UHGV virus genome: UHGV-0240988
Direction: 5' to 3' (one strand)
Origin: a virus
Length of the DNA: 14,021 nucleotides
Part shown: piece after piece, positions 12,322 to 13,993 of the stretch
Layout: each line of letters begins with the position of its first letter
How positions within the stretch are numbered: position 1 is the first letter of the stretch
Notes under the pieces: generated by a model
Told to the model about the DNA's origin: nothing
Seen by the model: only the letters and a program-made list of their open reading frames with translations
Databases searched by the model: none
Made by a program: the position numbers and the translations under genes

Positions 12322-12513
12322 ATGACAAACTTACCCCATGACTATTACGTCAATCTCGTAAAGATCCTTCTCAAGAAAGCCTCATACGCCGATAAACTCC
12401 GCCTGGCTGAAATAATCGAGCGCGAAGCTATGCGCATCGCCAGCAACGATAACGCTGTTTCTGACGCAAAAATCTCCCTCGTAACCAAAGTAGTTATGGG
12501 AGGTGCAAAATGA
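12322..12513 (+). CDS. Hypothetical small protein, 63 aa
   Basis: ATG 12322 with AAGGGA upstream; its stop overlaps the ATG of the next gene (ATGA at 12510-12513). Confidence 0.45.
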
Positions 12514-13196
12514 AAACGCTTCCGACCGTTAACACCCTACAGCCTATCCTGCATAATCAGATTCCAGTAATCACAACTGAGCTACTCGCCCGCCTTTATG
12601 GAACAGAAGCAATCCGTATACAGCAAAATCACCATGAAAATAAAACTCGGTTCATTGAGGGGAAGCACTTCTTTAAAGCTGTTGGTGATGAACTCAAAAA
12701 TTTGCGACTAGTTTTAAACGAGTCACAAAATGAGGTACAAATTTCCCCCAAAACTCGCTCTCTCATCCTCTGGACAGAACGCGGGGCTGCACGTCACGCT
12801 AAAATGCTTGAAACTAACCAAGCGTGGGATGTGTTCGAACGGCTGGAAGACTGCTATTTCAGCCAGTGCGAGAAAAATACTGGCAAACAAGAGAAGAAGC
12901 CCAACGGGCTTTCCGCAAAAGAAACAGACAGCCTTGTATGGCTGTGGGATTATGCCAACCGCTCACAGGCATTGTTCCGTGAGTTGTATCCCGCATTAAA
13001 ACTGATTCAGTCTGGCTATTCCGGCATATGCCACGACTACGGCTATGAGTTCTCGTATATCATCGGGAGGGCGAGGGGCGTTTTAATTAATCACACGCGG
13101 GATATAGATATTTATGAGCCTGACGGGCCGACGAACCTTCTGGCATGGGAAAGGCTTAAGAACAAAGAGTTGCCGCCTTCACTGCATCGCTACTGA
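12510..13196 (+). CDS. Antirepressor-like protein (ORF6N / KilA-N-type N-terminal domain), tentative
   Basis: 228 aa; N-terminal segment ...[38 protein letters not shown]...[33 protein letters not shown] resembles ORF6N-type antirepressor N-domains (pattern recognition only); followed by a terminator. Confidence 0.5.
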
Positions 13197-13213
13197 CAAT
13201 TGACAACTTAACA

Positions 13214-13240
13214 AACCCAGCTTCGGCTGGGTTTTTTATT
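13214..13240 (+). terminator. Rho-independent terminator
   Basis: Stem AACCCAGC (13214-13221) / GCTGGGTT (13226-13233) with TTCG loop, followed by TTTTTTATT. Confidence 0.7.
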
Positions 13241-13264
13241 GCTGAATTTTCAATATGAGAGGAC

Positions 13265-13993
13265 ATGACAATGAATGAGCTGATAAATAGCAACGTCATC
13301 AAAATGACAAGCATTGAAATCGCTGAGTTGGTGGGAAGCCAACACGGTAATGTCAGAATATCAATAGAACGTCTGGCAAAGCGTGGGGTGATTCAACTTC
13401 CTCCAATGCAAAAAGTTGAAAATAAACAAACAATTAGCCCTAACAAATTCACAAGCGTGTATATATTCGAAGGCGAACAAGGTAAGCGAGACAGCATTAT
13501 TGTCGTCGCTCAGTTGTCGCCGGAATTCACCGCTCGTCTTGTTGACCGTTGGCGAGAACTCGAAGGGGCAACCGCGAAAATACCACAAACCTTTTCTGAG
13601 GCATTGCGCCTTGCGGCCGACCTTGAAGACCAGAAGGCTGAACTGGAGAAACAGCTTGCTCTCGCAGCACCTAAAGTTGAGTTTGCCGATCGCGTTGGCG
13701 AGGCCAGCGGAATTTTGATTGGAAACTTTGCAAAGGTTGTTGGAATTGGTCCAAACAAACTGTTTGCGTGGATGCGCGATCACAAAATCCTTATTGCTTC
13801 AGGTTCCCGGCGCAATGTGCCAATGCAGGAATATATGGATCGCGGCTATTTCACAGTGAAAGAAACAGCGGTCAACACAAATCACGGAATACAGATATCG
13901 TTCACCACAAAAATCACCGGGCGTGGTCAACAGTGGCTGACCAGAAAGCTGCTCGATAACGGAATGCTGAAAGTAACAGGGGAGGCTGCTTAA
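13265..13993 (+). CDS. Phage antirepressor (Rha-type N-terminal domain + KilAC/Ant C-terminal domain)
   Basis: 242 aa; N-terminal ...TSIEIAELVGSQHGNVRISIERLAKRGVI... typical of the Rha regulatory domain; C-terminal ...NFAKVVGIGPNKLFAWMRDHKILI... typical of the KilAC antirepressor domain; GAGAGG SD before ATG 13265. Confidence 0.7.
   Translation: MTMNELINSNVIKMTSIEIAELVGSQHGNVRISIERLAKRGVIQLPPMQKVENKQTISPNKFTSVYIFEGEQGKRDSIIVVAQLSPEFTARLVDRWRELEGATAKIPQTFSEALRLAADLEDQKAELEKQLALAAPKVEFADRVGEASGILIGNFAKVVGIGPNKLFAWMRDHKILIASGSRRNVPMQEYMDRGYFTVKETAVNTNHGIQISFTTKITGRGQQWLTRKLLDNGMLKVTGEAA

Follow-up and report, generated by a model that had tools for sequence, protein, structure and literature searches.

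A probable P1-type immI module with isrK and C4 RNA genes upstream of an antirepressor gene in the nin region of a lambda-immunity prophage

Background

What decides whether an antirepressor gene carried in the nin region of a lambdoid prophage is expressed, and on which repressor would its product act? The question is raised by the virus genome UHGV-0240988, a stretch of 14,021 nucleotides that is called the window here. Between positions 12322 and 13993 it contains a small open reading frame (ORF) followed by two genes with antirepressor-type domains. A preliminary description, drawn from the letters alone, regarded the two genes as one terminator-bounded cassette, placed away from a dedicated immI region and perhaps serving to induce or counteract co-resident heteroimmune prophages.

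The immI region of phage P1, known since 1990, offers a point of reference. Its annotated sequence runs through the promoter P1c4, the sites a1 and b1, c4, the sites a2 and b2, icd and finally ant1, which overlaps icd by four bases. The c4 and isrK RNA families are held in Rfam and have been described (PMC2864571), and the two have been noted together upstream of a Bro-N gene in APSE phages (PMC7313666). In Gifsy-1, IsrK supplied in trans raises anrP translation more than 100-fold via a coupled upstream ORF, pairing with a region that Rfam scores as C4 (PMC4825925). That paper makes no mention of c4, and a 2025 review handles IsrK and c4 as separate systems.

In this report, we present evidence that the interval 12047-13240, within the nin region of a lambda-immunity prophage, is very probably an inserted P1-type immI module that has the c4-icd-ant layout. 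The functional unit starts at 12047, about 275 bases to the left of the position 12322 at which it had first been taken to begin, and an RNA control module of the P1 immI kind, thought at first to be lacking, lies directly upstream of the first antirepressor gene.

Results

A C4 RNA complementary to the start site of the first ORF

The features described in 12047-13993 lie on the plus strand. The 275 bases between NinE and the small ORF (63 codons, 12322-12513 in the ORF scan, hereafter ORF63) contain a promoter-like site and two RNA genes, isrK and C4. The C4 antisense RNA (12181-12268) matches Rfam family RF01695 at 84.3 bits, against a gathering score of 45 (E = 9e-16). It folds into a long, tRNA-like closing stem that holds two internal hairpins, with a minimum free energy of -44.3 kcal/mol (z = -4.6). 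A tRNA was also considered for the G+C-rich, structured stretch 12000-12300 and rejected: ARAGORN found none there, and the stretch is C4.

Two segments of C4 are exposed in this fold, namely b' (CCATGGTGA, 12225-12233), in the loop of hairpin 2, and a' (GTTCCAA, 12240-12246), in the single-stranded stretch that follows this hairpin. Each has a partner on either side of the C4 gene. The a' heptamer is exactly reverse-complementary to both a1 (TTGGAAC, 12108-12114), in the leader RNA, and a2 (TTGGAAC, 12272-12278), which begins 4 nucleotides past the C4 match, the same relative position as a2 in P1. The b' loop pairs over 9 bp, one of them G-U, with b1 (TCATCATGG, 12123-12131), and over 8 Watson-Crick bp with b2 (TCACCATG, 12317-12324), which includes the ATG of ORF63 at 12322. 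Taken with GGAACTA (12310-12316), b2 makes a near-continuous duplex with C4 over the region from the Shine-Dalgarno (SD) sequence to the AUG, and the duplex of the exposed C4 segments with this region amounts to -21.7 kcal/mol. The pairing search was limited to these exposed segments; duplex folding of full-length C4 against its flanks gave meaningless long duplexes.

Co-variation across isrK-C4 loci

We compared the window with 14 further loci that carry an isrK-C4 pair (15 with the window), from phi24B, P1, a Yersinia phage, PhiR12_4, three Shiga toxin (Stx) phages, Hafnia phage yong2, phiP27, Gifsy-1, TL-2011b, a Salmonella phage, the P2-like P88 and an O157 typing phage. Each of the 15 loci has a single C4 heptamer, a', with exact reverse complements at both target places. 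The a1 place is leader position 26 at 14 of the 15 loci and 23 in PA8, and the a2 place falls at +1 to +7 after C4. The heptamer itself varies, nine different versions being present among the 15 loci, and the hairpin-2 loop (b') pairs over 6-15 bp with b1 and b2 sites that change along with it. At the 14 other loci b2 stands 5-16 nucleotides upstream of the first ORF's start codon and, in the sequences displayed, overlaps the SD or sits just 5' of it.

The formal count of pairs used an alignment of 14 sequences and was compared with slid partners and with 500 shuffles. It found 95% of cells paired, versus 38-43% with slid partners; none of the 500 shuffles reached the observed values, and changes on both sides were seen in 24 of 50 pairs. 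Compensatory double changes affect 6 of the 7 pairs of the a1-a' helix, all 5 pairs of C4 hairpin 1 and 5 of the 6 pairs of leader hairpin 1, while the 17-bp closing stem of C4 has 100% of its cells paired and its CCACC 3' end is invariant in all 14 aligned loci. The a'-a2 and b sites were out of register in several MAFFT rows and were therefore judged by the exact-word and helix searches. Altogether, the comparison argues for a functional antisense system with distinct specificities as strongly as comparative evidence gets.

A further conserved box (12284-12292, GGTGGTGAG) could form a helix with positions 12257-12265, the 3' strand of the C4 closing stem. In the 14 loci 92% of the cells of this helix are paired, against 31-66% with slid partners, and four pairs show double changes. 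The helix is possibly an alternative fold of the unprocessed precursor, one that would place a2 in a hairpin loop.

The promoter-like site and the leader RNA

The promoter-like site of sigma-70 type (12047-12076) consists of TTGACG, an 18-nucleotide spacer and TATATT, with 10 of 12 consensus matches. It begins one base past the stop of NinE, its -10 box lies 7 nucleotides before the isrK 5' end, and in the alignment its columns coincide with those of the annotated P1 promoter P1c4/P51b. This site is predicted to serve a transcript that covers the leader, C4, ORF63 and the first antirepressor gene, ant. Control of the C4 promoter by CI was considered and rejected because no lambda-type operator lies nearby: none was found in 12047-12321 when up to five mismatches to the three OR sites were allowed, and the weak matches closest to this region stand at 12855 and 13912.

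The IsrK-like leader RNA (12083-12156) matches Rfam isrK (RF01394) at 72.2 bits, for a gathering score of 50. It folds into two hairpins, the second of which presents the decoy site a1 in its loop, followed by an intrinsic terminator (12137-12156) with a 5-bp stem and a U7 tract. This terminator is weak (-9.5 kcal/mol, z = -1.6), and read-through is predicted. It forms the upstream boundary of the ant unit, outside the coordinates initially flagged.

Since the P1 leader itself (our locus L003, 1930-2011) matches the isrK model, at 35 bits and thus under the family's gathering score of 50, IsrK appears to be the a1/b1 leader under another name. This equivalence is visible in the Rfam matches and does not seem to have been spelled out before.

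ORF63 and Ant

ORF63 gives a full-length match to phrog_7886 (7.8e-47) and none in Pfam. Its homologues form 34 clusters in Enterobacterales, at 60-97% identity, and it represents a genuine small-protein family. In Erwinia and Yersinia the homologue again overlaps an antirepressor-type gene (P22_AR_N) by 4 nucleotides, and is preceded by isrK and C4 or by the related sRNA-Xcc1. The stretch 12269-12321, free of called ORFs, holds no further ORF of at least 30 codons.

The next gene, ant (228 codons, 12510-13196 in the ORF scan), overlaps ORF63 by the ATGA at 12510-12513, a coupling arrangement already seen in the preliminary description and the same as that of icd and ant1 in P1; translational coupling is predicted from this layout. 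The SD of ant (GGGAGG, near 12497) is predicted to pair with UCUCCC within ORF63.

The ORF6N-like character first attributed to the 228-residue protein is borne out by Pfam (ORF6N, 1.3e-19, residues 12-99). Its C-terminal half carries a P22 Ant domain (residues 128-200), matched over the full length of P22_AR_C (PF10548) at 3.4e-24, and the protein matches phrog_377, 'anti-repressor Ant', at 1.6e-81. It is 77% identical to phi24B Ant and, over the 127 N-terminal residues of the ORF6N half, 58% identical to Gifsy-1 AnrP; over its last 104 residues it shares 83% identity with residues 197-300 of P22 Ant. By analogy with these three relatives, Ant would bind and inactivate a phage repressor. In phi24B, once norfloxacin has been given, the late promoter of an ant deletion mutant reaches 27-56% of its wild-type activity, and most of the loss is made good by complementation (PMC3064807); Gifsy-1 is induced when AnrP is expressed (PMC4825925); P22 Ant, according to work cited in PMC3064807, is active on lambda cI and on heterologous repressors; and trans-acting antirepressors cross-induce other prophages among the Gifsy phages of Salmonella (PMC3121763).

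A strong terminator separates ant from roi

The terminator placed by the preliminary description at 13214-13240 is real. A 9-bp stem with a UUCG loop (13213-13234) is followed by a T6 run, the T-run extending to about 13240; the structure reaches -15.1 kcal/mol (z = -3.9), and none of 200 shuffles folds as well. An rsmX match over 13131-13236 (22 bits, E = 0.18) was rejected, as it covers the terminator hairpin only.

This single terminator separates the two antirepressor-family genes, so that they do not form one terminator-bounded cassette as had been proposed. The second gene (242 codons, 13265-13993 in the ORF scan) has no terminator after it inside the window, and its stop overlaps the ATG of the next gene (TAATG, 13991-13995). 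Of the two domains suggested for its product, KilAC is confirmed (ANT/KilAC, PF03374, 5.8e-33), while the N-terminal Rha domain (Phage_pRha, PF09669) is found only below threshold, at 26.4 bits for a Pfam cut-off of 29.9 (E = 1.1e-5, residues 14-100). PHROGs places both the 228- and the 242-residue protein in 'anti-repressor' families; an NCBIfam search with the three flagged proteins gave no match, and a search by sequence for solved PDB relatives of Ant or Roi found none.

The 242-residue protein is 82% identical over 241 residues (2-242) to the roi region of HK022 (34652-35377, tblastn), and its gene is the orthologue of roi, a conserved lambdoid nin-region gene. HK022 Roi reportedly binds DNA and influences lytic growth in IHF mutants. 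The KilAC half of the protein (residues 75-236) is 55% identical to the C-terminus of P1 Ant1. Records of Stx phages annotate Roi beside Ant (PMC3430580).

Two in-frame ATGs are available to roi, at 13265 and 13271, and the SD-like GAGAGGA (13257-13263) is properly spaced only for the second, which is the more likely start and the one called by the Prokaryotic Genome Annotation Pipeline. No promoter for roi passes the scan in 13197-13264; a perfect -35 hexamer there, TTGACA at 13200, lacks a -10 partner, and transcription of roi is therefore assumed to enter from upstream. Located past the terminator and contiguous with the next nin gene, roi is probably not in the regulated unit of ant; it is a separate nin gene that would lie outside the C4 switch and in the nin operon that follows.

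Comparison with known systems

The resemblance to the immI regions of P1 and P7 lies in the order and spacing of the promoter, the a1/b1 leader, C4, a2, b2, the small ORF and the ATGA-overlapping ant. C4 belongs to the same family in both, with 84 bits here and 69 bits in P1; in both, the second C4 hairpin exposes b' in its loop and is followed by the single strand that holds a', and in both, short 'address' sequences set immunity specificity. The two differ in their host element, a lambdoid prophage of lambda immunity here and a plasmid prophage in P1, and in the exact position of b2, which covers the AUG here but the SD in P1.

Gifsy-1 likewise has an IsrK with its own leaky terminator and, some 25 nucleotides later, a C4-family RNA (our locus L011, 34131-34214, minus strand, 69 bits). 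This match corresponds to the orf45/STnc1160 region, and it ties the present locus to the only lambdoid version that has been tested by experiment. Both loci also share a lambdoid prophage host, an ORF6N-type antirepressor and a coupled upstream ORF with AUGA overlap. The arrangements differ in that orf45 lies over C4 in Gifsy-1, with ant right after b2, whereas here a separate 63-codon ORF follows b2, and the frame ending in TGA at 12323-12325 is closed by a TAA at 12299. The a' address is ACGCCAA in Gifsy-1 and GTTCCAA here; the module stands after Q in Gifsy-1 and before Q here; and isrJ, found in Gifsy-1 at 100 bits, has no match in 11900-14021 (Rfam, E up to 1).

Among Stx phages (phi24B, Min27 and 933W-like phages), the order NinE, isrK, C4, ant, terminator, roi and next nin gene is the same as in the window, the Ant proteins are 77% identical and Roi is annotated; phi24B Ant is an experimentally supported enhancer of induction (PMC3064807). 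These phages lack the 63-codon ORF, ant coming directly after b2, and they have other addresses (a' GTGCTAA and b' TGTTTCGA in phi24B). The RNA genes are left unannotated and undiscussed in the phage records.

The immI region of P22 (mnt-arc-ant-sar) shares with the window the C-terminal 104 residues of Ant, an intrinsic terminator after ant and partial control by a small antisense RNA. It differs in that the window has no arc or mnt gene and that Ant has an ORF6N rather than a P22_AR_N N-terminus. Moreover, Sar, for which Rfam gave no match here (E up to 1), is a true cis-antisense transcript, whereas C4 is read from the same strand as its targets.

Two side observations concern related loci. 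sRNA-Xcc1 (RF02221) occupies the C4 position upstream of the Erwinia ORF63 homologue (L017, 2376-2460), with its own complementary boxes on both sides, and is also found upstream of a second Ant gene in Stx2a_WGPS6 (L006, 3250-3333); Rfam apparently lists one kind of switch under two names here. Separately, coding sequences called 'Ash family protein' or PF10554 overlie isrK and C4 genes, or extend ORF63 into C4 (L008, 2285-2968; proteins P0002-P0008), and may represent a protein-family annotation laid over an RNA gene.

The host prophage and the mosaic joint

The source prophage resides in the chromosome of E. coli W224N, where a 2.1-kb region matches at 100% (one other strain does likewise), and the RefSeq annotation around this region describes a lambdoid prophage. 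The whole window is a lambda-immunity prophage. Its left part contains kil and cIII, with a Lambda_thermo cIII element at 2826-2884 (Rfam, 88.5 bits), the antiterminator gene N (3781-4122, minus strand) and a lambda-type cI (6086-6799, minus strand), with OL sites (4242-4302) and three OR sites (6810-6873) that are close to the lambda consensus. These are joined by cro, cII, replication genes, an HNH endonuclease gene, NinB and NinE, the last ending at 12046 (Pfam NinE, 3.6e-42). The three flagged ORFs come next, followed by DUF1364 and RusA, and their assignment to the nin region is thus upheld.

Other genes of the window lie further from the module. A 309-codon ORF (no Pfam match) and a gene for a DUF6932 protein (4495-5999, minus strand) are neighbours of cI, presumably in the position of rexA and rexB in phage lambda, and may be defence or moron cargo. 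A nucleotide-modification-associated Nmad5 protein is encoded between N and cIII (3096-3776, minus strand). The HNH endonuclease has an AP2 domain, and its gene is followed by a hairpin with a 10-bp stem (10548-11185 in all); this hairpin (11158-11185) reads as a terminator on both strands.

Sequence related to the module region is present in 2442 of 5426 complete E. coli genomes, often in several copies per genome; the 467-base segment 12047-12513 occurs at 99% identity or more in only 2 of the 5426. A mosaic joint was located at about 12088-12102. On its left, NinE, the promoter and the first leader hairpin are like those of Stx phages. On its right, the sequence from a1 through ORF63 (12102-12513) is 98.4-98.8% identical to E. 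coli plasmid prophages of about 48 kb that bear ParA (77 plasmid places) and to Yersinia phage vB_YpM_39. Where checked directly, in one plasmid prophage (L023) and the Yersinia phage (L004), all 88 bases of C4 and all four targets are identical. The CP062206 type is one example of such a plasmid prophage with an identical C4. The window prophage, the 48-kb plasmid prophages and the Yersinia phage would thus constitute one RNA immunity group.

Discussion

How the module may work

The sequence itself shows the RNA genes with their folds and co-varying pairings, the ATGA overlap, the protein domains and the terminator. The scheme that follows is modelled on P1, Gifsy-1, phi24B and P22 wherever it deals with how C4 is processed, how ant is repressed or activated, what Ant binds and how the terminator would insulate. 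Transcription would start at about 12083, from a promoter that has no CI operator nearby, and most transcripts would end at the weak leader terminator, giving an IsrK-like RNA of about 74 nucleotides that carries the decoys a1 and b1. Transcripts that read through would contain C4, which may be cut from its precursor, as it is by RNase P in P1. Through loop b' and single-stranded a', C4 would then pair with a2 and b2 on its own or on any other copy of the mRNA. Because b2 covers its AUG, ORF63 would be left untranslated and, as a result, so would the ATGA-coupled ant; the untranslated RNA may also terminate early. An excess of leader RNA over C4, or heavy N-antiterminated transcription from PR that outruns C4, would free the start site by means of the decoys or of surplus target, and ORF63 and Ant would be made. 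Ant would in turn bind the phage repressor non-covalently and reinforce the switch to lytic growth. In the lysogen, the strong terminator after ant would stop the constitutive transcript before it reaches roi, the remaining nin genes and Q. Roi would be the product of a separate nin gene, a DNA-binding protein expressed from PR, whose transcripts could override both terminators because the prophage encodes N.

Beyond this scheme, we put forward more tentatively, as a possibility that we do not favour strongly, that leader and C4 are two halves of one switch, decoy and repressor with shared addresses, that the P1 and Gifsy-1 models describe one mechanism, and that the addresses define RNA immunity groups across phage types.

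Weighing the explanations

Several points weigh against assigning the interval to the P1 immI kind. The proteins differ: ORF63 (phrog_7886) is unrelated to P1 Icd (phrog_1426), and the regulated Ant, made of ORF6N and a P22-Ant C-domain, gives no BLAST match to P1 Ant1 and is not a homologue of P1 Ant1/2, the P1-Ant-like sequence (55%) being found in the neighbouring roi instead. Membership of the module therefore owes nothing to the proteins and is based on its RNA machinery and layout. The second, repressor-controlled promoter of P1 (P51a/Op51) has no counterpart here. At the leader, the c4-a1b1 motif that overlaps the isrK match falls slightly short of its gathering score (45.8 against 46.7 bits). 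The hairpin that would hide the SD of ant is no better than shuffles (z = -0.3), which weakens the case for strict translational coupling. The RefSeq record of the region lists three protein genes and neither RNA. Ant would not be needed for SOS induction, as the resident repressor is a lambda-type, RecA-cleavable CI. Finally, the two published models differ: C4 represses in that of P1, and IsrK activates in that of Gifsy-1.

The first of three other explanations takes Gifsy-1 as its model. The module would be chiefly an activator circuit: the IsrK-like RNA would remodel an otherwise silent read-through mRNA and so switch on ORF63 and Ant, the C4-like segment would be a structural element acting in cis only, and growth arrest by way of a Q-type antiterminator may take the place of normal induction. 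The strength of the isrK match is in keeping with this, as are the activation by IsrK in trans and the alternative structures that, in Gifsy-1, involve the region scored by Rfam as C4 (PMC4825925); the pairing of the box at 12284-12292 with the C4-stem 3' strand also suggests alternative folds of the precursor. We nonetheless consider it rather unlikely here, since the frame equivalent to orf45 is closed by the stop at 12299, no isrJ homologue follows ant and the module is upstream of Q, not downstream of it as in Gifsy-1. Furthermore, a processed RNA that acts in trans, as in P1, would agree with the targets duplicated exactly on either side of C4 and with the tRNA-like stem and its invariant CCACC. 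The two models are compatible with each other: by pairing with the a'/b' region, IsrK would behave just as a decoy of C4 should.

The same RNA evidence bears on the view of the preliminary description, in which the genes are a free-standing antirepressor moron that has no control region and mainly induces or counteracts co-resident heteroimmune prophages. Its domain assignments hold in good part, and the abundance of related sequence in E. coli, often several times per genome, the cross-induction by Salmonella antirepressors (PMC3121763) and the activity ascribed to P22 Ant on heterologous repressors (as cited in PMC3064807) lend it some plausibility. Yet a complete, co-varying RNA control module directly upstream is aimed at the start codon of the first ORF, the terminator splits the two genes and roi is contiguous with the next nin gene; roi, moreover, belongs to the conserved nin genes of lambdoid phages and has been described as DNA-binding, with no demonstrated antirepressor activity. 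This makes the moron explanation very unlikely as a whole. An action of Ant on co-resident heteroimmune prophages is possible, by analogy with its relatives, but the way in which the module is built speaks above all for control of the phage's own switch. The earlier observations are thus partly confirmed, and the interpretation placed on them is partly supported.

Could the interval instead be an inactive mosaic remnant, in which a lambdoid promoter, a C4-ORF63 segment from a phage-plasmid and a P22-type Ant tail no longer work together? The joint near 12100, Stx-phage-like on its left and like plasmid prophages and the Yersinia phage on its right, and the rarity of the 467-base segment among complete genomes are what such a remnant might show. 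However, all four targets match C4 exactly or with a single G-U, the pairing of leader hairpin 1 is kept across the joint by compensatory changes, the three ORFs are intact with full-length family matches, and so are the promoter, SD sequences and terminators. Decay of this sort appears most improbable, and a P1-type immI module remains the best description of the interval.

Significance for lambdoid prophages

The window adds to the known systems a mosaic member with its own address and a leader ORF other than Icd; it is nothing new in kind. Its value lies first in correcting the annotation: a pair of small RNAs situated just outside the flagged interval would decide whether Ant is made, and the Stx-phage records checked, such as that of phi24B, likewise list protein genes only. 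Across Stx phages, Gifsy-1, P2-like phages and phage-plasmids, the same RNA cassette precedes genes for several types of protein (ORF6N, Rha, Bro-N and P22_AR_N). Since phi24B Ant enhances induction, the cassette in Stx phages bears on toxin release. Because the addresses can be read from the sequence, they yield a testable prediction of which co-resident prophages cross-regulate. If the idea of a single switch with shared addresses is true, a resident phage-plasmid could act in trans on a chromosomal prophage of lambda immunity, either silencing the antirepressor of that prophage or, through the leader RNA of the phage-plasmid, triggering it.

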